Shown piece by piece: positions 1,110 through 15,707 of a DNA stretch of 64,000 bases (the first letter of the stretch is position 1; every line of letters starts with the position of its first letter). The stretch spans positions 11,316-75,315 of IMG/VR virus record IMGVR_UViG_3300045988_106851; one strand, 5' to 3'. Made by a program: the position numbers and the translations under genes. A model generated the notes under the pieces. The model had not been told where the DNA came from. It searched no databases and saw nothing but the letters and a program-made list of their open reading frames with translations. This DNA comes from a virus.

Positions 1110-1874
1110 TTATTTTCCCTTAATCCGTTCACATCCATCAGTCATTCTAAAGTCCTCCATTTGTCTACTGAAAGGAGTTAACTTATCAATTTGTTCTTGA
1201 ATAGAAAAATCCTCATTGAAGAAAGCAATGCCCTCGTGTATCTTCTTTATCGCCTGTATCTTCTTTTTAGTAGTCACAACAGGGTTTATATATATGCAGC
1301 CATGCTGTTGGGCAAAACGCCTACAGCTATTGCCTCCACCATATATGACGAACAACGGCTTCTCCCCCTCTGCCCAGTCCTCAGCAATGGATAGCTCAAA
1401 GGCGAGGTTACTGAGGCGGTCAGAATAGCCACGAGTAGCGAATGCACGCCACCCACGAGGCACTCCTATCATGTTAAGTTGATAATATTTCTGTGCCACG
1501 TTCAGGTCAACGAATATGCCTATGCCTCGTTGTTGCATTGCTCGCCCAATCCAACGTTTCTTATAAAGAGCTTGCATTCCAAATGCTATTGGCATCTCGT
1601 TGAAAAGCGAGAAATTTGGTTCTACAATATTACTTGGGTGATGTCGCAAAATCTTATCTGGGTGTTCATACACCACACTGAAGCGATAATCATCCGTGTA
1701 GAAATGTAGCGTACCTTGCCCGTTAAGATTGAAAGTCCTGGTCTGTTCACCGAAGCATAAGAAAGGAATATCACAAGTTTGCGCTTGCATATTCAAATCC
1801 AATGTCGGGATTTCCAAGTCGTTGTCGCATGGGAATAACTGGTCTGGTATTAAGGGAGTGTAGCTGTCATTCAT
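1110..1874 (-). CDS. DUF4417-like protein
   Basis: ORF track 1110..1949; likely ATG at 1874 (MNDSYTPLIPDQ...); sequence resembles the DUF4417 family often next to phage methylases. Confidence 0.65.
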   Translation of the reverse strand: MNDSYTPLIPDQLFPCDNDLEIPTLDLNMQAQTCDIPFLCFGEQTRTFNLNGQGTLHFYTDDYRFSVVYEHPDKILRHHPSNIVEPNFSLFNEMPIAFGMQALYKKRWIGRAMQQRGIGIFVDLNVAQKYYQLNMIGVPRGWRAFATRGYSDRLSNLAFELSIAEDWAEGEKPLFVIYGGGNSCRRFAQQHGCIYINPVVTTKKKIQAIKKIHEGIAFFNEDFSIQEQIDKLTPFSRQMEDFRMTDGCERIKGK

Positions 1875-2160
1875 ATTGTTGAATTTTGTCGTTAATCGCC
1901 GTGTATAACATCGTGACGTATTTATCCCTGCTGTCCAAATAGCCGCCATACCTATTAGCTTGATTTATCACGTTCCCTCGCGAACGCCCAAGCCTCTCTC
2001 CAGCTAAGGTAGGGTGTATTCCGTCTCTCCTCGCCATAAAGCAAAAAATTCCCCTAAGGCTATTGAGAAGAACTGTCTTCTTACGCGAGCACAATTGTTC
2101 AGGTGAGATTCCCCCAACCTCACAAACGGCTTGTTCAATAGTTGATAAGCTATGCTCCAT
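1867..2160 (-). CDS. small HTH protein resembling the DnaA C-terminal DNA-binding domain
   Basis: MEHSLSTIEQ...SRKKTVLLNSLRGIFCFMARRDGIHPTLAGERLGRSRGNVINQANRY; ATG at 2160. Confidence 0.5.
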   Translation of the reverse strand: MEHSLSTIEQAVCEVGGISPEQLCSRKKTVLLNSLRGIFCFMARRDGIHPTLAGERLGRSRGNVINQANRYGGYLDSRDKYVTMLYTAINDKIQQYE

Positions 2161-2287
2161 TTTTAATCCTATTAATAACCGCCACAAAATTAACAATAAA
2201 CTATCAATAAACAAGGGTTGATTCCTTAAAATATATTAAATCCTAAATTTTATTCTTAGTATATTTTTTTATCTGAACAGTTTTTAT

Positions 2288-2295
2288 TATCTTTG
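2288..2295 (+). promoter_or_regulatory. Bacteroidota -7 promoter box TATCTTTG
   Basis: Matches TAnnTTTG; 21-nt block tttttattatctttgcaatgt is repeated at 58104-58124. Confidence 0.6.
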
Positions 2296-2422
2296 CAATG
2301 TGTTTAAGAGAAATGACTATTAGTCAGACACCTCGATACACCACCAAACAAGAGACAGGTCAAGTCTTGCGAGGCGCATAACTTAGGATTTACGTGAGGT
2401 CGGAAGACCTACTAAATACGGA

Positions 2423-2463
2423 GCGGCAGAAAAACTTGACCTTTTCTGTCGCTTTTGCTTTTT
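2423..2463 (+). terminator. intrinsic terminator inside the 5-prime leader of the wHTH gene
   Basis: 11-bp stem 2423-2433/2442-2452 (one G-T), 8-nt loop, then TTTTGCTTTTT; ends 7 nt before ATG 2470. Confidence 0.65.
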
Positions 2464-2469
2464 GGTAAG

Positions 2470-3228
2470 ATGCAAATAAGAAAGAAGATATTGGATGAAA
2501 TATATCGCAATCCCGAGTTAAGGAAGGCAATTGCATTCTCCCTCTATATGAAGTCAAGGGTAGTATCTTCTTCCGTCCCACATTTTACTATCAATAAATT
2601 ACACGAGATAAGTGGCGTAAGCGCAACAACTATTAAAAAAAGATTGCGCATACTCAGACAACATAATATGGTTTCTTTCACAGGTAAAGGAGGCCATTGT
2701 ATTGTCTTCAATTCTTTAAGAAGTCACACTTCTCATAGGAATATCTGTATTAAAGATATTGACTTTATCGCAGACCATTGCTCACATAAAAACACAAATG
2801 CTCAAAATGTAAAATTCATAGATGATATATTAACGGCATTACTTATAATTGAAATCCAAAATCACAAGAATTTCGCAAGGCAAATGATTCAGCAGTCGGA
2901 GCAACCTAAAGGCTTGAATGAACTAAAGATAGCTAAGAAAGCTTGCAATCTTTTTGGCTACAGCGATAAATTCTCGGACAATGGCATTTCTTACAAGTAT
3001 ATGGCTCAAAAAATAGGATGTGGTCTTCAAAAAGCATTTGATATTGTTAAGTTCGCCACAAAGGAACAGATTTTAGTCAAGTTTAGAAACGTGCAAAAAT
3101 TTTATTTCCCTGGCGCAAAATTTATCAAAGAAGAATTACTTAGAATATACACATATATAAAAGGTAACACTGCCTATAAAGTTAGTGCTAATCGCTATCA
3201 ACTCTGCGATGGTATGGTATTTATTTAG
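2470..3228 (+). CDS. winged-helix/HTH DNA-binding protein, paralog of 53394..54152
   Basis: MQIRKKILDEIYRNPELRKAIAF...ATTIKKRLRILRQHNMV; same architecture and shared strings with the 252-aa minus-strand protein. Confidence 0.6.
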   Translation: MQIRKKILDEIYRNPELRKAIAFSLYMKSRVVSSSVPHFTINKLHEISGVSATTIKKRLRILRQHNMVSFTGKGGHCIVFNSLRSHTSHRNICIKDIDFIADHCSHKNTNAQNVKFIDDILTALLIIEIQNHKNFARQMIQQSEQPKGLNELKIAKKACNLFGYSDKFSDNGISYKYMAQKIGCGLQKAFDIVKFATKEQILVKFRNVQKFYFPGAKFIKEELLRIYTYIKGNTAYKVSANRYQLCDGMVFI

Positions 3229-3252
3229 ATTATGAAAAAGTAAGATTAAAAA

Positions 3253-3567
3253 ATGGCAAAAATAAAAAATATGGTAACGAAAACAACTATCGCCGAGACC
3301 CTTAAAGAGGTCATGGCAAAAAAGGACATCAAGCTCACGGTTGCGGAGAGCAACCTCTGTGTGACTACGGTCTTCCAGGCCGTCAAGAACGCTCTCGTCA
3401 ACGCTGGCGAGGTACGCATCGACGGCTTCGGAACGTTCAAGAGCGTTGACAAGCCAGAGCGTACCGGAAGGAACCCTCGAACGGGTCAATCTATCACAAT
3501 AGCAGCGCACAAAGATGTCGTATTCAAAGCAGCAAAAGCCTTGAAGATTACTGTGAACAACAAGTAG
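3253..3567 (+). CDS. HU/IHF family DNA-binding protein
   Basis: GFGTFKSVDKPERTGRNPRTGQSITIAAHKDVVFKAAKALK is the classic HU arm. Confidence 0.9.
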   Translation: MAKIKNMVTKTTIAETLKEVMAKKDIKLTVAESNLCVTTVFQAVKNALVNAGEVRIDGFGTFKSVDKPERTGRNPRTGQSITIAAHKDVVFKAAKALKITVNNK

Positions 3568-3654
3568 ACGTTATTTATTTAGTTCATTTTTTATTTTTAA
3601 TGTTATATTTTTCATTCCATCTGTAAAGGGCCTGGGAGTTTTATTCTGATACGT

Positions 3655-4014
3655 ATGAAGATATTTTATGATACCTACAAAGACATCTTTGCCTTCGCAA
3701 AAAAGGCGTTCAAAGGCACAGCCCTCGGCATATCTCGTTTACTGTGGACGGTTGTCTTACTCGTGGTCAACAGTGCGAGGTTCGCGTTCCTATGGCTTTC
3801 TGAGGTTATCAGGAAGAAGCCGATGGTGACGCTGCTCGTGTTCGCGGGGTTGCTCCTTGCGACAAACAGCGTGAACTACGCTTCCATGAAAGCCAAGCTC
3901 ACCACGGCCGAGTGGCGTTACGACCGTCTCCGCATCCACATGGATAGCGTCTACGAGGCATACAACATCCACAGCTCCTATTCCCGTATCGTCTCCTACG
4001 AGGAAGCGAAATAA
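3655..4014 (+). CDS. hypothetical membrane protein
   Basis: Two hydrophobic helices (LLWTVVLLVVNSARFAFLW, MVTLLVFAGLLLATN). Confidence 0.45.
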   Translation: MKIFYDTYKDIFAFAKKAFKGTALGISRLLWTVVLLVVNSARFAFLWLSEVIRKKPMVTLLVFAGLLLATNSVNYASMKAKLTTAEWRYDRLRIHMDSVYEAYNIHSSYSRIVSYEEAK

Positions 4015-4038
4015 TCGACCCACAAAAACATTAACCAA

Positions 4039-4275
4039 ATGGAAATATCCGATGACATACAGTTAGGCACGCGCATCACCTTGCAGGTTTCCGAGGGCAG
4101 CTGCGATGATTGCTTCTTCGCCAAGCTTGACTACGACCTCCGCGTAGATTGCTGCTACCGCATAAAATGCCAGGCTGCGCGTCGCAGAGACAAAAAAAAC
4201 GTGGCATTCAAATTGGTCGAGGGCAGTGCCACCGAGCCGAACATGCCCATTGAACATAAAAAAACACAGCAATGA
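4039..4275 (+). CDS. hypothetical small protein
   Basis: ORF track, operon context. Confidence 0.35.
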   Translation: MEISDDIQLGTRITLQVSEGSCDDCFFAKLDYDLRVDCCYRIKCQAARRRDKKNVAFKLVEGSATEPNMPIEHKKTQQ

Positions 4276-4511
4276 ACAGTAAAAAGCACAATAATAGGGA
4301 ACAGGCGATACAAGGGTTCTTGAAGGACTTATGGCATCCCGCCAATGAGCAACCGAAACATTCCAAGTGGATTATGACACAGTTTCTCGACGATGACAAT
4401 GATATTGCCTTTGAGATAGACATTGCCGGGCCTCTTATAGAGTGGAGGGAATATGCCAAGAAGTACAGAATCGTAAAGTGGCTATATGTCGATGACATCT
4501 TGCCACAGTAA
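4272..4511 (+). CDS. hypothetical protein, FLKDLWH...WLYVDDILP family (paralog of 6400..6747)
   Basis: Shared motifs with 6400..6747; ATGA overlap with upstream ORF. Confidence 0.5.
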   Translation: MNSKKHNNREQAIQGFLKDLWHPANEQPKHSKWIMTQFLDDDNDIAFEIDIAGPLIEWREYAKKYRIVKWLYVDDILPQ

Positions 4512-4543
4512 GGAGATAAGAAGTTTAACGAAATATAAACAAT

Positions 4544-4768
4544 ATGGCATGGGTATGTGTAGGATATAGTGGTGAAGAACTTGTGTTCGTCAATAAGCCG
4601 CATAGAAGAATTAGCAAAAACGAGTTCTTTTTTGATGAAAATGACATATATAAACACGAATGGATAGATGATAAATATTGTGGCTGCATAAATCTTCCCA
4701 AAGGCAGCATCAAGAAGCTCATCGGAAAGGACTTGTCTTGGGACGATGAGCCTGTAGAACTTAAATAA
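4544..4768 (+). CDS. hypothetical small protein
   Basis: ORF track. Confidence 0.35.
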   Translation: MAWVCVGYSGEELVFVNKPHRRISKNEFFFDENDIYKHEWIDDKYCGCINLPKGSIKKLIGKDLSWDDEPVELK

Positions 4769-4776
4769 GAGTAGTT

Positions 4777-5064
4777 ATGGTTAAACCCTACAGAATCAAA
4801 CACAAAGCAAGTAGATATTATTATCAACGTTACAACGGAAGTAACCTTGGCAAGAAAGGTAAGGTGTATATGAATAATCAATCACCACTTACAATGTGCG
4901 ATAATGAGAACTTTATACGTATTCAGATCCGTCACAACACTTTAGCTTATAAAGCATTGAGAAATATGCTTTCCAAATATGCTATAGGGAAAGATGATGA
5001 AAATGAATGGCATAGTACATCTTACAGAGTTCCGAAAAGTGAATTTGAAAAAGAAGAATTATAG
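4777..5064 (+). CDS. hypothetical small protein
   Basis: ORF track. Confidence 0.35.
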   Translation: MVKPYRIKHKASRYYYQRYNGSNLGKKGKVYMNNQSPLTMCDNENFIRIQIRHNTLAYKALRNMLSKYAIGKDDENEWHSTSYRVPKSEFEKEEL

Positions 5065-5554: not shown

Positions 5555-6403
5555 ATGAGATACATGAGAAAAACGCCAGTAGAGGCTATCCAGTGGAAGG
5601 GGGACAATCAGAAAGAAGTCTCTAATTTTATCAGTCCTACTACCGAGTCCTATTGTACTACGCTGGACGACCGTTACGGCAACCTTGATATATCCTACGC
5701 AGACCTTAAGGGGCGTAATTTTAATGCTGTCGTTCCTAAGTTCGGATGGGTTGTGAGAGATGGCAAAACCTTTCAGTTCTACAAGGATGCCACATTTAGA
5801 AAGACCTTTGGAAAAGTGCAGAAAGACGATTACAAAGGCATTGACAGGGAAGGCATGAGCAATACCCTCAAGGAGGCTCTTGACGGTTGTGATGAGCTTT
5901 TCAAAGGCTTTAAGGATGTCTTTAGAGCGGAGCCATACAAGGAGACTTTGGGCGCAGGAGTATGTATCACCCCCGACCATATAAAGATTGACAACCTTTA
6001 CAAAGGCTATGAAAAGACCCACGAGGAAGTCAAGCTCTCTGATGGATTGAAAGAGATGGCAAGCAACAAAGAGAAAGAGTACTCGCATGGCAAAGCAAAA
6101 GGTATCGAATCCGACACCTTTGAGTCCGTTCTCAACGAAATGAGAAACCTTCACGCCAAGAAGAACAAGGACTACGGTGACGCGTTCCACAAGAGCTTCG
6201 AGGAGTTCGGTGTTACTGCCGGTGTTGTACGCCTTAATGATAAGATGGAGCGTGTGAAGAGTCTTGTGAAGAATGGCAAGGCGGAAGTCAAGGACGAGAG
6301 TCTGATGGACACGTTGAAGGACATGGCAAGCTATGCTGTCATGTTGTATGTGGAACTTAAAAATAAAGAACGGAGAATTTGTAGTAGCGGAGAATTATTA
6401 TGA
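5555..6403 (+). CDS. protein with C-terminal DUF1599-like (nucleotide-modification-associated) domain
   Basis: C-terminus KKNKDYGDAFHKSFEEFGVTAGVVRLNDKMERVKSL...DESLMDTLKDMASYAVM. Confidence 0.55.
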   Translation: MRYMRKTPVEAIQWKGDNQKEVSNFISPTTESYCTTLDDRYGNLDISYADLKGRNFNAVVPKFGWVVRDGKTFQFYKDATFRKTFGKVQKDDYKGIDREGMSNTLKEALDGCDELFKGFKDVFRAEPYKETLGAGVCITPDHIKIDNLYKGYEKTHEEVKLSDGLKEMASNKEKEYSHGKAKGIESDTFESVLNEMRNLHAKKNKDYGDAFHKSFEEFGVTAGVVRLNDKMERVKSLVKNGKAEVKDESLMDTLKDMASYAVMLYVELKNKERRICSSGELL

Positions 6404-7862: not shown

Positions 7863-7997
7863 ATGACTGACATTAAGATTTCGGTGCATCCGTTTGGCCA
7901 TAAGCTCGAATGGCGAGGATGGGGGGGTAACTTCTCGCCTGCTCTACGAGCCACCGACTACAAATGCCCTCACTGTATAATGATTGAATATGACTAA
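7863..7997 (+). CDS. C5-MTase TRD-like mini-ORF A
   Basis: Own translation MTDIKISVHPFGHKLEWRGWGGNFSPALRATDYKCPHCIMIEYD*; stop overlaps ATG of B. Confidence 0.6.
   Translation: MTDIKISVHPFGHKLEWRGWGGNFSPALRATDYKCPHCIMIEYD
7921..7927 (+). repeat. G7 tract, in frame (module A)
   Basis: Counted directly. Confidence 0.95.
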
Positions 7998-8124
7998 GCA
8001 ACACCCATTCGATGATTTTCATCAGCGCATTCATTGGGACGGCAACTCCATCGGAACCGTTACCCAGCAATGGGGCAATCCTGCGCCGAGGCACGGATGG
8101 CGAATAATGACAGAATATGATTAA
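7990..8124 (+). CDS. C5-MTase TRD-like mini-ORF B
   Basis: MTKQHPFDDFHQRIHWDGNSIGTVTQQWGNPAPRHGWRIMTEYD*. Confidence 0.5.
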   Translation: MTKQHPFDDFHQRIHWDGNSIGTVTQQWGNPAPRHGWRIMTEYD

Positions 8125-8443
8125 CCCTCACACGCCCCGCTACAAGCGCGGCACCATCACCAAGGACGGCAAGCTATACGGACGCTATCCCGACGGTTCG
8201 CTCTACCGCATCTACTCCACCTCTGACCGACCCTTCCTTCAGATTGTTGACCGCAAGGGCGAGACGTTCCTTCGCATACGCCAAGCCACCGAGCAGGGCT
8301 ATACCGACTGCCCTTGCCCTGGTGCTGCCGACCTCAGCTATTCCTCCTCGGCTCTAAGGCGCAGCAGGACGGTTGGGGGGGGTAAGCTGGTGAACGCTCT
8401 GACCGCAGCAAGCGGAGGGGCGTGCGTGTTTGTTGAATTATGA
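8117..8443 (+). CDS. C5-MTase TRD-like mini-ORF C
   Basis: ORF track 108 aa; YRIYSTSDRP..., LRIRQATEQGY...ALRRSRTVGGGKLVNALTAASGGACVFVEL*. Confidence 0.6.
   Translation: MINPHTPRYKRGTITKDGKLYGRYPDGSLYRIYSTSDRPFLQIVDRKGETFLRIRQATEQGYTDCPCPGAADLSYSSSALRRSRTVGGGKLVNALTAASGGACVFVEL
8385..8392 (+). repeat. G8 tract, in frame (module C)
   Basis: Counted directly. Confidence 0.95.
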
Positions 8444-8450
8444 CTTGAAT

Positions 8451-8631
8451 ATGCTTAGAGCAAAGGCAATATCAATAATGGTGAAAAAGGTGGAGCAGAC
8501 CATGGTGTTTCAGAACATGCAAGCCAAAGGTCTGATAACGCCTCGCTCGCTTGATGGCGAATGTTTTACTCTTACGTCTGCAATGGGATTAGGGGGGGCA
8601 AACGCCTGTAATAGTAAAGGTATATGACTAA
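8451..8631 (+). CDS. C5-MTase TRD-like mini-ORF D, frame broken at G7 tract
   Basis: ATG 8451 (track lists TTG 8430); ...DGECFTLTSAMGLGG; present frame stops at 8627; one fewer G reads GGQTPVIVKVYD* ending 8631. Confidence 0.5.
8592..8598 (+). repeat. G7 tract, one G too long for module D
   Basis: Counted directly. Confidence 0.9.
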
Positions 8632-8755
8632 ATACGACCTCTACCAATATCCTCGTGGCTACAACGACGGAGGTAGATTAGGCACTGACGTTTGCCCGAC
8701 CTTGACAATCAATTCGTGGCAGCAAAATGTATTTCTGATTGAAGAATATGAATAA
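8624..8755 (+). CDS. C5-MTase TRD-like mini-ORF E
   Basis: MTKYDLYQYPRGYNDGGRLGTDVCPTLTINSWQQNVFLIEEYE*. Confidence 0.6.
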   Translation: MTKYDLYQYPRGYNDGGRLGTDVCPTLTINSWQQNVFLIEEYE

Positions 8756-8767
8756 AGCAAAGACAAT

Positions 8768-10103
8768 ATGATCACAAAACTCAATTTCACCGACCGCACC
8801 ATCAAGAGCTATGCTATCCGTAAGCTCACGCCAAAGGAGTGTTTCCGCTTGATGGGCGTTCGCGACAACGTAATCGGCACGATGCAGAGCAGCAATGCCC
8901 AAGCAGCCGAACGTTTGCCCGACTGGAAGGGCAAGGGCAAACCCGAAGACATGGCTATATCTGCCTCACAGCAGTACAAGCAAGCCGGAAACTCAATCGT
9001 GGTGGACGTGTTGGCCCACATCTACGAGCAACTTTTCTATCCCGCACCGCCCAAGCCCCGCAAGCAGGAACAGCTCACGCTCTTCGCCGACCTTGATGAC
9101 TCGCTGCCCGCCATGCCACCAACAGCCGGAGAACGTGGTAAGGAAAATCTTTTCCTCACCACGTTCTCCGGCTACGACTCGCAGCTCATGGCAGCCGACG
9201 TGCTATGCGAGTGGCATCCCGACTTCCGATGGACATGCGTAGGATGGAGCGACATCGACAAATACGCCTGTCAGATGCACAACCTCGTCTTCCCTCAGTT
9301 TGCCGACTGCGCCCTTGGCGACATCACCAAGATTGACTGGCATGAGGTGAAACGCTCGCTCCATGGGCGCGAGGTTGACATCTTCACCTATTCCTCGCCT
9401 TGCCAGGACATCAGCCAAGCCGGAAAGCAAATGGGACTGAAAGAGGGTAGCGACACACGCTCCGCCTTGCTTTGGCGTGTGGCGGATGCCGTGGAGGTGC
9501 TTCGCCCGAAGTATCTCTTGCAGGAGAACGTGGCGGCACTGGTAAGCCAGAAGTTCATGCCCGACTTTCAGAAGTGGCTCGACAAACTCTCGTCGCTCGG
9601 CTACGTCTCTCGCTGGGCTCGTCTCTCGCTGGGCTCGTCTCAACGCCAAGAACTACGGTGTGCCGCAGAACCGCGACCGTGTGTTCTGCATCTCCATGCG
9701 CCAGGACGTAGCCTTCGACTATCAGTTTCCCGAACCCTTCGAGCTGCGCACCCGACTGGAGGACGTGTTGGAAAATGAGGTAGCCGACCGTTATTTCCTA
9801 AAAGACGATGCCGTGAGCAAATCCCTCAAGGCTAACGACTCCGACAACGCCCTCTTCGTGCAGTTTGATTTGCCACCGACACACGAGGCAGCAATGTTCT
9901 TGAAAACGTGGCTCACGTTGTGGATGCAAGCAGCCGATGGTTGGAAAATGACATCTACAAGTCTTCAGCTCGCCCTTTATTCGGCAAAGCAGAAAATGGA
10001 GCTGTCTTATTCCGTGTTCACGGATAAGGGAGTGGCTGCGTTAGGCGATGAGTTTCAATTGTTGTTCAAGGAGAATATGGAGAGGAAGAAGGATGCGAAC
10101 TGA
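8768..10103 (+). pseudogene. circularly permuted cytosine-5 DNA methyltransferase core, frame broken by a 16-nt tandem duplication
   Basis: Order in sequence: IRKLTPKECFRLMG (IX), QAGNSIVV (X), linker, LTTFSGYDSQ (I), YSSPCQDISQAGK (IV), LLQENVAALVS (VI), then in the next frame NYGVPQNRDRVFCISM (VIII); deleting one copy of 9605-9620 gives one 439-codon ORF. Confidence 0.85.
9605..9636 (+). repeat. perfect 16-nt tandem duplication (gtctctcgctgggctc x2, plus 5 nt of a third copy)
   Basis: Read directly; copy 1 reads VSRWA in the upstream frame, copy 2 reads VSRWARLNAKNYGVPQNR in the downstream frame. Confidence 0.95.
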
Positions 10104-10284
10104 CAACCCGCCCGACCGTGTAATCCGTATCATAGCTGATATGATTAGGGGTGGTAGGTTGCTCACCTGCCCTGCCTCAATGTTCAGCGCAGAGCGTTTC
10201 AACGGAGCCTTTCACGGCATAGCAATAACCATCATGTCGCGCACCGATTGCAGCGACGTATTCTTTGTAGCAGTAGAATTATGA
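10093..10284 (+). CDS. C5-MTase TRD-like mini-ORF F
   Basis: MRTDNPPDRVIRIIADMIRGG...GIAITIMSRTDCSDVFFVAVEL*; ATG overlaps the core stop. Confidence 0.5.
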   Translation: MRTDNPPDRVIRIIADMIRGGRLLTCPASMFSAERFNGAFHGIAITIMSRTDCSDVFFVAVEL

Positions 10285-10427
10285 CACTCCCTTTCAACAC
10301 CGAATCCGACGGTACATCACATACTATTAAATCCCAATATTTCAAAATGGGAGCAGCGAATGTGCTCGACATTTCGTTTGACGGTGCCAACTTTAAAGCC
10401 ACTGGCGCAATCGTGATATATGAATAA
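10281..10427 (+). CDS. C5-MTase TRD-like mini-ORF G
   Basis: MTLPFNTESDGTSHTIKSQYFKMGAANVLDISFDGANFKATGAIVIYE*. Confidence 0.5.
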   Translation: MTLPFNTESDGTSHTIKSQYFKMGAANVLDISFDGANFKATGAIVIYE

Positions 10428-10572
10428 CAACCCTCGACCCATCATCCTCGGCTCCTACAGCCCCTCGCAGAACGGCATCATCGTGTCACCACACGGCATA
10501 GCCTTGTGCATAGCCGGGGGTGGTAAGGGCCACGATGTGGACAAACCGAAAATACTGATAGAATATGATTGA
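10420..10572 (+). CDS. C5-MTase TRD-like mini-ORF H
   Basis: MNNNPRPIILGSYSPSQNGIIVSPHGIALCIAGGGKGHDVDKPKILIEYD*. Confidence 0.55.
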   Translation: MNNNPRPIILGSYSPSQNGIIVSPHGIALCIAGGGKGHDVDKPKILIEYD

Positions 10573-10747
10573 CCGTTCCGTCCTCGTCCACTACCGCACC
10601 GAAGAGGCGAAAGCCTACCGCCGCGAGCATGGCGACCGTGGAGGGTGCAAATACCAAGACAAACTGCATCTCCCCAGTCCGTGGCCGTGGAGTAATTCGA
10701 TAACAACAGTAACAAAAGACAACCTCCTATGCGTAATATTCAGATAG
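10565..10747 (+). CDS. C5-MTase TRD-like mini-ORF I
   Basis: ORF track 60 aa; RTEEAKAYRREHGDRG...SNSITTVTKDNLL. Confidence 0.65.
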   Translation: MIDRSVLVHYRTEEAKAYRREHGDRGGCKYQDKLHLPSPWPWSNSITTVTKDNLLCVIFR

Positions 10748-10903
10748 CTGCCTTCCGAGGTCGCGACCCCGACAACCCGTCCGACCGCAAGCATCCCTCC
10801 TGCGGTCGTTTCCGTCAGCGCATGGAGATAAACGGGGGGGGGTACAACCAACACGCTTACGTCAGTAGGCAAGGATAATATGGCATATATAGAGTATGAA
10901 TAA
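10729..10903 (+). CDS. C5-MTase TRD-like mini-ORF J, frame broken at G9 tract
   Basis: MRNIQIAAFRGRDPDNPSDRKHPSCGRFRQRMEINGGG; present frame stops at 10878; one fewer G reads TTNTLTSVGKDNMAYIEYE* ending 10903. Confidence 0.6.
10834..10842 (+). repeat. G9 tract, one G too long for module J
   Basis: Counted directly. Confidence 0.9.
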
Positions 10904-11045
10904 TCAAATCCCATTCGTGCAACGCCTCTCGCGTTTCTGCCCACGTCGGGGCTACTCCACCGCCCTGTCCGCACGCTACGACGGATGGGCAGGACTCTAC
11001 GACGAGCACGGACAGCACACCATTGTATTGATAGAGTATGAATAA
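10896..11045 (+). CDS. C5-MTase TRD-like mini-ORF K
   Basis: MNNQIPFVQRLSRFCPRRGYSTALSARYDGWAGLYDEHGQHTIVLIEYE*. Confidence 0.55.
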   Translation: MNNQIPFVQRLSRFCPRRGYSTALSARYDGWAGLYDEHGQHTIVLIEYE

Positions 11046-11178
11046 GTATATACTAAATTGCTCGTCAGGTATCTGTTGCGTTTTGGCCTCTCATTACGCA
11101 AGAGAAGGATGGGCGAACATAGCAAATAATACAACATCACAATGTAAAGCACCCGCAATATTGATAGAGTATGACTGA
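11038..11178 (+). CDS. C5-MTase TRD-like mini-ORF L
   Basis: MNKYILNCSSGICCVLASHYAREGWANIANNTTSQCKAPAILIEYD*. Confidence 0.5.
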   Translation: MNKYILNCSSGICCVLASHYAREGWANIANNTTSQCKAPAILIEYD

Positions 11179-11350
11179 CAAGTATTACATTGGCTGGGTA
11201 CGCAGCGGCAAGGACGGCAAGGGCCTCGTAAAGAGCCGACCGTGCAAGCGGATAGCCAATGCCGTGACGACAATGGTCGGAAGAGGTATTGCCGACCCTC
11301 GCGACGGACTCGGCAACACCACACCGCATATAGTATATGAATATGAGTAA
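11171..11350 (+). CDS. C5-MTase TRD-like mini-ORF M
   Basis: MTDKYYIGWVRSGKDGKGLVKSRPCKRIANAVTTMVGRGIADPRDGLGNTTPHIVYEYE*. Confidence 0.5.
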   Translation: MTDKYYIGWVRSGKDGKGLVKSRPCKRIANAVTTMVGRGIADPRDGLGNTTPHIVYEYE

Positions 11351-11370: not shown

Positions 11371-11823
11371 ATGGAAAAAGAAACAAATAACCGTATGGAG
11401 GCACTTGCCTACATCATAGCCGACCTAAAGGCAGAGAACATAGAGCTGGTGCAGCGTGTGCATCAGCTTGTGGAGGATTACAACGACGTAGCACGTCAGT
11501 TGCGTGGAATGGAGAAGCGTAAGGACGAAGACCAGTCAAGGCAGACGCTCGGCGAAATGATGCAGATGCGCGACCATTGCGACAAACTGGAGGTTGAAAA
11601 CAACAATTTGAAGACGTGCTTGATAGCAGTCAGCTCGTTTCTGCGAGACAAAAATCTGTATATGGCTAATGGCACATTATGTTCTTATGGGTCTGGCAAT
11701 CCAGAAGTATGTCCTGAGTACTGCAAAAAATGTAACTCCTACCTAAGTACTTTAAAGGATGTTGGTGTGGTTTGCAGCAGAAGACTTGCAGAAGCTTCCG
11801 TAATTTTTGCGAAGAGTAAATGA
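11371..11823 (+). CDS. coiled-coil protein with Cys-rich C-terminus, embedded in the TRD array
   Basis: ORF track 150 aa; CSYGSGNPEVCPEYCKKC; its TGA overlaps the ATG of module N. Confidence 0.5.
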   Translation: MEKETNNRMEALAYIIADLKAENIELVQRVHQLVEDYNDVARQLRGMEKRKDEDQSRQTLGEMMQMRDHCDKLEVENNNLKTCLIAVSSFLRDKNLYMANGTLCSYGSGNPEVCPEYCKKCNSYLSTLKDVGVVCSRRLAEASVIFAKSK

Positions 11824-11982
11824 CACCAACAAAAACCCTCGTGGTCGGCATGATGCAGACGCCACCCTATGACCGCATGTTTGAGCAGAGCCGCCGCGTG
11901 TACTCCGCTCAGGGAATATCGCCCACGCTGCATACACAAGGGGGGGGGTGATAGAGAGATTAAGGTATTGGTGGAGCTGTAA
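11820..11982 (+). CDS. C5-MTase TRD-like mini-ORF N, frame broken at G9 tract
   Basis: MTPTKTLVVGMMQTPPYDRMFEQSRRVYSAQGISPTLHTQGGG then TGA at 11949; one fewer G reads GDREIKVLVEL* ending 11982. Confidence 0.65.
11940..11948 (+). repeat. G9 tract, one G too long for module N
   Basis: Counted directly. Confidence 0.9.
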
Positions 11983-12104
11983 GAATGTCCGCTCCATATC
12001 GCCGACAACACCTATCTTTGTACATATCACTGATATGATACGAATGAGACTAACATCGTTTTCATTTGTTTCGTTTGGTGACAAACAAAAACAACATTTC
12101 ATCT

Positions 12105-12458
12105 ATGATACAACATCAGCATTGGGAAGACTCCACTCACATACTCATTACCGACGAGCAGCATCATGGCAGCATACAGGTGTTCATCCCCAAGCGCACC
12201 GAAGACAAGCCCTTGGATGGCGAGGCTGACGCTCTCGTCTATTCGCTGTGGGTGGGCGAACGGCACCGTGGCCGTGGGGTGGCAAAACTCCTGATGGAGA
12301 CAGCCGAAAGGGAACTGAAGCGCTGCGGCATAGCGACCGTCGCTATATCGTGGGATGGACGCGACTCTCCCCAATGGGTGTTGCAATGGTATGAAAGGTT
12401 GGGCTACGAAGGAAAAGCGTTCGACTACCGCTGCTGCACGCTTCTTAAACGGTTGTAG
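12105..12458 (+). CDS. GNAT family N-acetyltransferase
   Basis: LWVGERHRGRGVAKLLMETAE (motif A R-x-x-G-x-G/A); likely ATG 12105. Confidence 0.7.
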   Translation: MIQHQHWEDSTHILITDEQHHGSIQVFIPKRTEDKPLDGEADALVYSLWVGERHRGRGVAKLLMETAERELKRCGIATVAISWDGRDSPQWVLQWYERLGYEGKAFDYRCCTLLKRL

Positions 12459-12753: not shown

Positions 12754-13281
12754 ATGAAAACAAACGCGCTCTCCGTCGCCAACTATTTCATAGAGTTGTC
12801 TATAAAGGACAAGAAACCCATACACTTGCTTGGGCTTGTCAAACGTGTTTATATTGCACATGGATTCGCCTTGGCATTACTACATCGTGGTTTAATAAAC
12901 GAAAGGTTTGACAAGGTGGAGGCATGGAAATACGGACCGGTCATACCGTCCGTTTACCATTCATTCAAACAGTATCGAGCAAGGGAGATAACGGGGAAAA
13001 CTGTTGTTATGGAATGGGACGAGAGAGAAAAATGTCCAATATTTGAAACTCCAAGCCTAACTGCCAAAGATGAGAAAAGAATAGTAGAGATGGTATGGAG
13101 AAGGTATATTTCATATTCAGATAGCGAGTTGGTAAGTTTAACCCACATGAAAGGTACTCCGTGGGACATGTGTTTCATTGAGGGGGAAAATGTAACGATT
13201 CCAGATATTCTTACAGAAGACTATTACAGAAGGCTAATTGAAAGAGTCGCGTCAAGAAAGGGTATCTCATGGGAAAATTAG
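12754..13281 (+). CDS. Panacea (DUF4065, SocA-like) domain protein, putative PanA antitoxin
   Basis: SVANYFIELS...HLLGLVKRVYIAHGFALALLHRGLINERFDKVEAWKYGPVIPSVYHSFKQY. Confidence 0.75.
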   Translation: MKTNALSVANYFIELSIKDKKPIHLLGLVKRVYIAHGFALALLHRGLINERFDKVEAWKYGPVIPSVYHSFKQYRAREITGKTVVMEWDEREKCPIFETPSLTAKDEKRIVEMVWRRYISYSDSELVSLTHMKGTPWDMCFIEGENVTIPDILTEDYYRRLIERVASRKGISWEN

Positions 13282-13652
13282 ATTTAATAGATGCTCTTGA
13301 GGAAAGTAATGATAAAAATATCGAATTATCTGATGAGCGCGCAATACAAGTAGAACCTATAAACGGTGATGGAAATGCCATTCTTGCTATACAACAAAAG
13401 AAAATCCAACGACTGGATGAAGAGATAAAAGACCTGAAACAGGACAGGGAACAGAGAAAAGTATTAAGCTATGCCTTATTTGGCTTTATGTGTTTCTATA
13501 TGCTTGTGGCATTGTTTATTGTGTTCTGCTGTGGCTTCGGATGGATGTATCTTTCTGACAAGGTGCTAATAACGCTAATGACCACGACATTGGCAGACGT
13601 TATAGGCATATTTGGTTTTGTTGCAAAATATCTATATCATAACAAACCATAG
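13269..13652 (+). CDS. coiled-coil plus two-TM membrane protein, candidate PanT-type toxin
   Basis: 13-nt overlap with the Panacea gene; LSYALFGFMCFYMLVALFIVFCCGFGWMYL and ITLMTTTLADVIGIFGFVAKYL helices. Confidence 0.45.
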   Translation: MGKLDLIDALEESNDKNIELSDERAIQVEPINGDGNAILAIQQKKIQRLDEEIKDLKQDREQRKVLSYALFGFMCFYMLVALFIVFCCGFGWMYLSDKVLITLMTTTLADVIGIFGFVAKYLYHNKP

Positions 13653-14537: not shown

Positions 14538-15707
14538 TTACTTTTTATTATAAAGCACGTAATCTATCACTTTACGATTGGCCTCATCTATTTTATTCTG
14601 GTCTTTCTTGATATATACATTTGTTATTTTATGTCCGCCTTTATGGCCTAAGCAGTCTGCTATAATATCAATACTGATACCAATTTGATAAGCTATGGTC
14701 GCAAATGAATGCCTTGCCCAATATGTCGTAATCTTAGGCAAGCCGAGCTCAGAGCTTATATTGCGCAACATCTTGTTTATATTAATTTCAAAGTTCTTGC
14801 AATCCTTTTCGCCATCAAAGACATTTAAGAGATGCTTTTCGCCTTTGTAACGGTTGATAATTTCAAGTGCCTCTGGTTCTACCTTAATATCATAAAGCGT
14901 CCCAGTCTTTGACCGTCGATAAATTACCCTCCCATTCTCGATTGAAGATAAACCGAATAAATCAATTATGTTAATTCCCATCAAGAAAAATACAAGAAAG
15001 AATATATCACGATATTTTGTGCGTAACCGAGAAAGTTTCGCATTATATAAAGTTCTCAACTCTTCGACGGTTAACGCTCTTTTTTTCGTCTCTTCCATCC
15101 GTATGGTGTACATATCAAAGACATACTCTTTTAGTAATCCTTTTTTGCGAGCAAAGTTAAGGACGGCACGAATATTCATTAGCCGTATGGCGATGGTATT
15201 TTTGGAATTACCATTTTTTTTCAAAAAAGAGACAAAACTATTAATCCAGTCTATATCAATGTCCGAAAGCAACAGGCTATCGTAATCACAGAATGCAGAA
15301 ATTTTTGATTCTGTGTATAAATAGATATTCTTTGTCCCTTGCCTGTCTTTTGTAGAGAGCAACTCTTGGAATTGGGTCTTAAGCAAATAATCATTATCTG
15401 GCTCGCCTTCGCCAGACAAAAATTGAGCAAGCCGCCTATTTGAAAAGCTACGAAGTTTTCCTTCCTCTCTAAGTTCTTCAATTTTATCGTTGACGTAAGT
15501 CACCTTTTTTGATAGTCTTAGATTGTCTATGCGCTGGCTTTGCCTTTTCTTTATCTTACTATTAGCCACATCCCATTCTTTCTCTTCAAGTTCAAAACCT
15601 GTAGAGAGGTAAAAAGCACCGCCATTCCGAGCGACCTTGATTTTTAATGGATATTTACCATTTTTCAAGCGATACCTCTTATCCAATTTTACTGTAACTT
15701 TTATCAT
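14538..15707 (-). CDS. tyrosine recombinase / phage integrase (Bacteroidota type with N-terminal arm-binding domain)
   Basis: MIKVTVKLDKRYRLKNGKYPLKIKV... N-terminus; ARHSFATIAY...LGHKGGHKITNVYI catalytic region. Confidence 0.9.
   Translation of the reverse strand: MIKVTVKLDKRYRLKNGKYPLKIKVARNGGAFYLSTGFELEEKEWDVANSKIKKRQSQRIDNLRLSKKVTYVNDKIEELREEGKLRSFSNRRLAQFLSGEGEPDNDYLLKTQFQELLSTKDRQGTKNIYLYTESKISAFCDYDSLLLSDIDIDWINSFVSFLKKNGNSKNTIAIRLMNIRAVLNFARKKGLLKEYVFDMYTIRMEETKKRALTVEELRTLYNAKLSRLRTKYRDIFFLVFFLMGINIIDLFGLSSIENGRVIYRRSKTGTLYDIKVEPEALEIINRYKGEKHLLNVFDGEKDCKNFEININKMLRNISSELGLPKITTYWARHSFATIAYQIGISIDIIADCLGHKGGHKITNVYIKKDQNKIDEANRKVIDYVLYNKK

Follow-up and report, generated by a model that had tools for sequence, protein, structure and literature searches.

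C5-cytosine methyltransferases (C5-MTases) are textbook single-chain enzymes, with the target recognition domain (TRD) embedded between conserved motifs VIII and IX. Multispecific C5-MTases of the Bacillus phages SPR, phi3T, rho11s and H2 were reportedly described by Trautner and co-workers in EMBO J in 1996; enzymes of the SPR/phi3T type join one catalytic core to several short TRD modules (~40–60 aa), each for one target, and have a presumed anti-restriction role. Other C5-MTases are circularly permuted, and many of these belong to Type II restriction–modification (R–M) systems. Natural permuted enzymes include M.BssHII, M.Alw26I, M2.Eco31I, M.Esp3I and M2.BsaI, with 27 in REBASE, and most of those known seem to be of type H, with the order TRD–IX–X–I–VIII and the TRD in the chain, an assignment in which class H versus J is uncertain (PMC5944983). 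M.AquI and M.EcoHK31I are natural two-polypeptide C5-MTases, and fragment complementation is known for other enzymes too (PMC3404938); multispecific phage C5-MTases with tandem TRDs are the subject of the Trautner work as cited in PMC12707154. Here, we analyze a 64,000-nucleotide (nt) stretch of viral DNA (positions 11,316 to 75,315 of IMG/VR record IMGVR_UViG_3300045988_106851; the window throughout), whose plus strand carries a gene for a putative C5-MTase core flanked on both sides by small open reading frames (ORFs). We consider it probable that this locus is a multispecific phage C5-MTase in disassembled form, in which a permuted, TRD-less scaffold is served in trans by free-standing TRD mini-proteins.

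The core frame is split in the window into two overlapping ORFs (8768–9778 and 9660–10103) by a 16-bp tandem duplication, and the 439-amino acid (aa) protein analyzed below was repaired by deleting one copy of it. Motifs I, IV (PCQ), VI (ENV), VIII (QxRxR), IX and X (GNS) were all located in the core, and every motif string quoted in the original prediction, an earlier reading made from the bare sequence, was recovered on the plus strand at its predicted position. A Pfam profile search with PF00145 scored 175.5 bits (cut-off, 22; E = 2.4e-51), the match falling into two stretches of the repaired protein. In phmmer comparisons with Protein Data Bank (PDB) sequences, core residues 157–331 correspond to M.HhaI 35–198, residues 17–34 and 65–86 to M.HhaI 271–288 and 294–315, and residues 15–49 to M.MpeI 333–367. 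Because the C-terminal motifs of M.HhaI and M.MpeI align at the N-terminus of the core, IX and X precede I–VIII, and the permuted order proposed originally is borne out by both the profile and the alignments; natural permutation had likewise been named correctly as a precedent, though calling it rare overstated the case, given the REBASE count above. Motif I takes the form FSGYDSQ, a variant common to the whole clade. The expected proline-rich linker between X and I is present but spans 36 aa rather than the predicted 40–45; it varies among relatives, and the predicted local distance difference test (pLDDT) values of 55 and 53 for residues 101–120 fall below those of the flanking blocks. Judged by these alignments, the core is a genuine single-chain circular permutation with IX–X before I–VIII, and methyl transfer is predicted for this putative C5-MTase.

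Relatives of the core are continuous. The best 120 protein clusters match it at 88–94% identity with 99–100% query coverage and lengths of 435–491 aa, a collinear single match of more than 400 aa was obtained by tblastn in 87 of 91 sequences, and among 80 viral contigs plus locus L001, most loci have one ORF that starts MITK(L/F)NF. This continuity argues against both arrangements that had been set against a permutation at the outset, namely two separate truncated methyltransferase genes and a IX–X segment borrowed from an upstream gene. Among the 91 sequences, the core is frameshifted only in the window, L070 and L089, and the fourth tblastn exception, L090, is a distant relative with canonical motif order. 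It might still be asked whether the C-terminal end of one methyltransferase gene next to the N-terminal part of a second, or a chimeric assembly, could create the pattern, as tandem canonical genes do yield pseudo-permuted tblastn matches in Deep Blue-type Bacillus phages. Here, however, the ORF begins 16 codons before motif IX, TRD minigenes rather than motifs I–VIII lie upstream, and the ORF is continuous in those 87 of 91 independent assemblies, so that we count an artefact as refuted.

The collinear matches in Deep Blue-type phages were themselves rejected as permuted enzymes because each comprises two tandem canonical methyltransferase genes in one frame. In Deep Blue (NC_031056.1, locus 1436–4385), three methyltransferase genes (Blue_147, 146 and 145) are adjacent, and the end of one with the start of the next mimics a permuted match. 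A tandem-duplicate intermediate has been proposed for the origin of permuted enzymes, and the Deep Blue arrangement resembles it.

The duplication in the window core sits in a quasi-repetitive stretch at 9588–9641 (Tandem Repeats Finder: period 16, 3.2 copies), and because these surroundings are already repetitive, the site may be slippage-prone and the change possibly reversible. The duplication is absent from 90 related loci and is thus a lesion private to the window, whose copy of the core is a frameshifted pseudogene. Other short proteins of the family, including P0125 (329 aa), contain only I–VIII plus the helical extension described below, or only IX–X; these could be frameshifted copies like that of the window or true two-gene splits.

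What the core lacks is a TRD. Only 16 residues (MITKLNFTDRTIKSYA) precede motif IX, modeled as a beta-hairpin with strands at 2–6 and 11–19, and the equivalent of M.HhaI ~199–270 is unmatched or absent in the phmmer alignment. Motifs VIII and IX are 139–156 residues apart in single-TRD canonical relatives, and in a second permuted lineage, which starts MIVQINLDKREAQCFDIRKLTP, 11–28 residues stand before IX and only 87–90 after VIII. With chain ends this short relative to the canonical spacing, one TRD's worth of sequence is gone: the intrinsic TRD between VIII and IX is absent from the core, and because it was left out of the permuted chain, the two chain ends lie on either side of the vacant TRD site. 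The ends had been predicted to fall exactly where a TRD normally sits; they do flank that site, but not exactly, as motif VIII is followed by the usual pre-TRD segment and then by a C-terminal extension of ~80 aa. The sequence type of this extension differs among sub-lineages, its tail matches no Pfam family, and it is absent from the TRD-less cores of the MIVQIN lineage. One possibility is that it forms a TRD-docking platform.

AlphaFold2, supplied with a deep alignment of diverse permuted relatives, modeled the core with a pLDDT of 73.7 and a predicted template modeling score of 0.68; values in the I–VIII region are mostly 83–97, with dips at residues 211–230 and 251–260. The top PDB matches of this model in Foldseek are M.HhaI, M.MpeI and M.HaeIII (E ~1e-13 to 1e-10), with only ~200–270 columns aligned, as is to be expected when a sequential aligner meets a permuted chain.

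Fourteen mini-ORFs of 43–108 aa flank the core (u1–u5 upstream, d1–d9 downstream; see table), 3 of which (u4, d5 and d9) are out of frame in the window. Across 82 loci, the commonest ends of stop-bounded plus-strand ORFs of 35–130 aa are EYD (244), VEL (141) and EYE (137), and nothing comparable to this tail enrichment was seen on the minus strand of the same loci; in all, ~660 conserved-tail mini-ORFs of ~15 families lie between −2 kb and +3 kb around the core. We compared the mini-ORFs by BLASTP with the 150 best representatives of core homologues, so that E-values are relative to this small database. Twelve mini-ORF families match canonical relatives at 31–72% identity; wherever the subject is canonical (103 family-by-subject pairs), the match falls without exception between motifs VIII and X. 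In canonical relatives, the tail of the TRD leads directly into motif IX (..NNFVVEPYFRIRKLSPREC in P0143), and u5 aligns to a segment of P0143 that ends 3 residues ahead of that motif. The variable region is very long in many subjects, reaching 585 residues from VIII to X, and P0195 is matched by six different mini-ORF families, the highest number among subjects; regions this long, matched by up to six families, make these subjects look like multi-TRD, multispecific enzymes.

Profile and structure libraries are less informative about the mini-ORFs. Pfam holds no family for any of the ten scanned, and PHROGs none apart from a weak match of u3 to phrog_8411 (positions 101–161, directly before motif IX of that family), while a phmmer search of 15 concatenated mini-ORFs against solved structures returned chance antibody matches only, indicating that no solved TRD is recognizably related to them. 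Public databases contain exact copies of the mini-proteins, on as many as 292 contigs and without exception annotated 'hypothetical protein'.

Fusions were found at both ends of the core, as expected if a TRD sits between the two chain ends. In P0091 (491 aa), the core C-terminus is fused to a homologue of d8. At the N-terminus, P0165 carries a family-7 module and P0132 two TRD-like modules, whereas in P0172 and P0256 the N-terminal 54 aa match family 0, the family of d1, and are followed by a core that starts MIAQIN... Homology to VIII–X segments and fusions at either end therefore both uphold the suggestion that TRD mini-ORFs lie on the two sides of the core. The same fusions can also be read differently: most minigenes might be silent cassettes, a TRD becoming active only once deletion or recombination at a junction fuses it to one end of the core or the other. 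Such an expression site would fit the in-frame fusion in P0091 and the N-terminally fused relatives, the recurrence of the junction GAATATGAnTAA several hundred times in related loci as a direct repeat, and the way in which repertoires vary, cassettes being present in some loci and missing from others. Fusions are rare, however, found in 1 of the 120 best clusters and not clearly seen in any of 81 loci, and each minigene inspected in the window, L001 and L082 retains its own ATG (in one L001 case, only an upstream in-frame start). Selection is strong along the full length of in-frame copies, and across the gap between them, the last upstream TRD and the core keep no fixed frame. We regard an expression site as unlikely.

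Selection on the minigenes was estimated from the ratio of nonsynonymous to synonymous substitution rates (dN/dS), which lies between 0.08 and 0.24 in 12 of 12 groups tested. By this measure, the flanking mini-ORFs are real genes under purifying selection. Their repertoires vary: the 76 loci compared show 54 different arrangements of TRDs, and a given family always lies on the same side of the core. The arrangement also recurs beyond the close relatives of the window: in the L082 lineage, a TRD-less core ~45% identical to that of the window has mini-ORFs directly upstream, and comparison of these sequences indicates that the architecture of TRD-less core plus minigenes is older than this phage group. 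In L082 itself (3959–4994), which represents a GC-rich-looking lineage, the tail of three TRD mini-ORFs is ..(L/V)QYG(D/N)(K/T)IKF in place of ..IEYD, and the core begins MIVQINL; minigene tail and core N-terminus may co-vary between lineages.

The window TRDs examined are separate ORFs that alternate in frame and have start and stop codons of their own, and most consecutive minigenes overlap as ..GAATATGAnTAA.., the stop of one with the ATG of the next. This organization bears on whether translational recoding, by read-through, frameshifting or an alternative code, links minigenes with one another or with the core to give an ordinary multi-TRD polypeptide. The last upstream TRD of the window is indeed in frame with the core, with one TAA stop and four codons between them. 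Successive minigenes nevertheless occupy different frames, and the junction, as read from the sequence, does not form a slippery heptamer. We rejected read-through from the last upstream TRD into the core because the gap between them (2 to 13 nt or more) and the frame vary across loci, and an alternative code because code 11 leaves large phage ORFs, the longest of 1713 aa, uninterrupted and because the frame changes from one minigene to the next. Recoding is in our view very improbable.

The minigenes are further set apart by poly-G tracts. The 64-kb window contains five G runs of at least 7, all of them within TRD minigenes (positions in the table), and no C run of at least 7 occurs anywhere in it; in 883 kb of related loci, 167 G runs but only 19 C runs of this length were counted, concentrated around the core. 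A tblastn survey with 14 family groups found 509 TRD gene instances that keep to a single frame and 83 that occupy two, and the break coincides with a G run of at least 6 in at least 43 of the 83. Where 50-nt flanks are identical, G-run length differs in 20 of 29 groups, compared with 5 of 20 for control A runs. GlyGly is encoded by GGGGGG in 55 of 570 cases in minigenes and in none of 40 in large phage ORFs. The TRD minigenes thus contain homopolymer tracts inside coding sequence whose length sets the frame, which suggests that poly-G slippage may bring about phase variation of single specificities.

A core without a built-in TRD and TRD minigenes nearby imply that specificity may come from separate, swappable mini-proteins. 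In such a system, one gene would provide the catalytic scaffold, with IX–X moved ahead of I–VIII by means of a flexible linker and the TRD omitted, and ~14 tightly packed minigenes on both sides would each encode one TRD. A mini-protein would bind the scaffold non-covalently, with the N-terminal hairpin on one side and the C-terminal extension on the other, and would probably dock through its conserved hydrophobic-Glu-Tyr-Asp/Glu C-terminal strand; this tail, the hairpin and the helical extension are the candidate docking elements. Docking would rebuild the small domain and give a holoenzyme that methylates the target sequence of that TRD, and with different holoenzymes present together, phage DNA would be methylated in advance at many sites and so shielded from many host restriction systems, while poly-G slippage inside TRD genes would switch single specificities on and off. 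If recognition is outsourced in this way, phages would have a new route by which to collect and trade anti-restriction specificities, the benefit of circular permutation in this family would be explained, and protein engineers would find a split system already made, its methylation target set by a module of ~45 aa. More tentatively, we propose a fully trans-programmed C5-MTase, in which one scaffold draws on a library of ~45–110 aa TRDs, each switchable by poly-G, to give a phase-variable anti-restriction methylome; this is possible, and if true, it would make the enzyme the first among C5-MTases whose specificity subunit is detachable and offer a natural model for programming cytosine methylation.

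Several observations weigh against trans-acting TRDs. That core and mini-proteins assemble in trans is something we infer from sequence, and the nearest engineered counterparts, M.MpeI and M.SssI split into a chain with X and I–VIII and a chain with TRD and IX, were inactive (PMC5944983), which argues that docking in trans needs evolved interfaces. Some minigene assignments are less direct: d2 was assigned only by its tail, position and start/stop overlap (ATGA), d7 only by tail and position, and d4, which has an atypical tail, only by visual resemblance, unscored, to the second N-terminal module of P0132 and to an L082 mini-ORF, while family 4, represented by d6 (assigned only by tail, position and selection), gave no TRD match in BLASTP against core homologues. 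Structure prediction, which supports a C5-MTase fold for the core, did not place the fused TRD of P0091 confidently, as pLDDT is below 50 at residues 452–485 in the deep-alignment model; with a shallow alignment (members 84–95% identical), the pLDDT of this fusion was 33. Poly-G length variation could reflect error in metagenome assembly or sequencing instead of slippage in the phage. Finally, the helical extension at the C-terminus could itself serve to bind DNA.

This last point leads to a core that acts alone, with relaxed or fixed specificity and perhaps with its C-terminal helices in contact with DNA, while the mini-proteins have another role or are remnants, now decaying, of what was once a multi-TRD region. 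All six motifs checked are kept in the core, which has an extra domain of ~80 aa, and the engineered detached small domains failed to complement, all of which would fit a self-sufficient core. The dN/dS values, on the other hand, rule out relics, TRD homology, where found, is confined to the VIII–X interval, and minigenes accompany TRD-less cores in two lineages, in one of which the helical extension is wholly absent from those cores. We give a core acting alone only a small chance, and continue to prefer a scaffold served by TRD mini-proteins.

The window derives from a temperate tailed gut phage, as it encodes a tape-measure protein, a major head protein, an integrase and anti-repressors. 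Its relatives are contigs of ~90–105 kb, some of them binned or named Prevotella. Genome collections yielded metagenome bins only (two Prevotella sp., the rest Oscillospiraceae- or Clostridia-labeled or unclassified), so that a Prevotella host is no more than suggested. The locus had no megablast match in INPHARED, and by megablast and tblastn searches the permuted gene is in no deposited cultured phage. Hundreds of 43–108 aa 'hypothetical proteins' in gut Prevotella-associated phage sequences are TRD homologues. Among the neighbors of the core, the SocA/Panacea gene and the ORF that overlaps it may form a toxin–antitoxin pair, and the integrase presumably serves lysogeny. No nuclease family is recorded among the L001 and L082 neighbors, most of which lack annotation.

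Table. Features of the methyltransferase locus and neighboring genes in the window (window coordinates).
Feature	Position	Strand	Remarks
Permuted TRD-less core, putative C5-cytosine methyltransferase	8768–10103	+	439 aa after repair; PF00145, M.HhaI/M.MpeI alignments, intact orthologues, AlphaFold2
Motif IX, IRKLTPKECFRLMG	8816–8857	+	N-terminal placement
Motif X, QAGNSIVV	8981–9004	+	N-terminal placement
Pro-rich linker, PAPPKPRK...GKEN	9041–9148	+	36 aa, motif X to motif I
Motif I, LTTFSGYDSQ	9155–9184	+
Motif IV, SSPCQDISQAGK	9392–9427	+	Catalytic Cys (PCQ)
Motif VI, LLQENVAALVS	9515–9547	+
Perfect 16-bp tandem duplication, CGTCTCTCGCTGGGCT x2	9604–9635	+	Frameshifts core
Motif VIII, VPQNRDRVFCISM	9660–9698	+
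C-terminal extension, predicted three-helix	9864–10100	+	Family-specific; helices 366–383, 390–407, 413–440; pLDDT 60–70
u1, family 2s	7863–7997	+	44 aa; in frame; G7 run at 7921; 67% identity to P0149 VIII–IX segment
u2, family 9	7990–8124	+	44 aa; in frame
u3, family 2 long type	8117–8443	+	108 aa; in frame; G8 run at 8375
u4, family 10	8451–8631	+	Out of frame at G7 run 8592; tail QTPVIVKVYD in next frame, 8599–8628
u5, family 5	8624–8755	+	43 aa; in frame; stop 12 nt before core ATG
d1, family 0	10093–10284	+	63 aa; start overlaps core stop codon
d2	10281–10427	+	48 aa; tail ..IVIYE
d3, family 1	10420–10572	+	50 aa; homologue upstream of TRD-less core in lineage L082
d4	10565–10747	+	60 aa; tail ..LLCVIFR
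d5, family 3	10729–10903	+	Out of frame at G9 run 10834; tail ..GKDNMAYIEYE in next frame
d6, family 4	10896–11045	+	49 aa
d7	11038–11178	+	46 aa; tail ILIEYD
d8, family 7	11171–11350	+	59 aa; homologue fused in frame to P0091 core C-terminus
d9, family 6	11820–11982	+	Out of frame at G9 run 11940
Protein with C-terminal DUF1599, 'nucleotide modification associated domain 1'	5555–6403	+	282 aa; E = 5e-9; upstream, same gene block
Protein between d8 and d9	11371–11823		150 aa; N-half coiled-coil-like, C-terminal part Cys-rich (by eye); same place in L001 (9821–10267); no significant Pfam family
GNAT acetyltransferase	12066–12458		PF00583, E = 3e-9; directly downstream of array; also in L001
SocA/Panacea antitoxin-domain protein	12754–13281		PF13274, E = 6e-16
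ORF overlapping SocA/Panacea gene	13269–13652		127 aa; hydrophobic, membrane-protein-like by eye
Tyrosine integrase	14538–15707	-	phrog_1, E = 8e-30; ~2.5 kb past array

In summary, permuted, split and multispecific C5-MTases are each known, and their combination was found described nowhere in the searchable literature; free-standing C5 TRD genes, in particular, had no description in a full-text search whose scope excluded most subscription journals and the REBASE notes. Like the natural permuted C5-MTases, the window core carries IX–X before I–VIII in one polypeptide, with the break in the variable region, but unlike the majority, which appear to keep theirs, it has no TRD in the chain, only its 16 residues before IX, and it appears to be a phage orphan. 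An N-terminal TRD, as in type H, occurs in P0132, P0144, P0172 and P0256 and not in the window family or the MIVQIN lineage.

With the SPR/phi3T type, the locus shares a phage origin; its mini-ORFs are homologous to the tandem modules of long canonical relatives, and by analogy with multispecific enzymes these TRD modules would serve the window core. In SPR/phi3T-type enzymes, however, tandem TRDs lie within one polypeptide between VIII and IX, whereas the window has one gene per TRD and a permuted core. M.AquI and M.EcoHK31I provide the likeness of a C5-MTase built from separately translated pieces, M.EcoHK31I requiring a small second polypeptide. M.AquI is divided between I–VIII and IX–X, and the beta chain of M.EcoHK31I carries motif IX alone, each with one fixed partner; in the window, by contrast, a single chain holds all six motifs checked, nothing but the TRD is separate, and there are many partners to choose from. 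Type I R–M proteins are unrelated, being N6-adenine methyltransferases in which HsdS is a large two-TRD subunit, and the resemblance to Type I R–M (HsdM with a separate HsdS) and to phase-variable mod and hsdS genes is one of logic rather than of membership. What these systems and the window locus would have in common is a constant catalytic subunit, exchangeable specificity subunits and, possibly, switching by homopolymer slippage.

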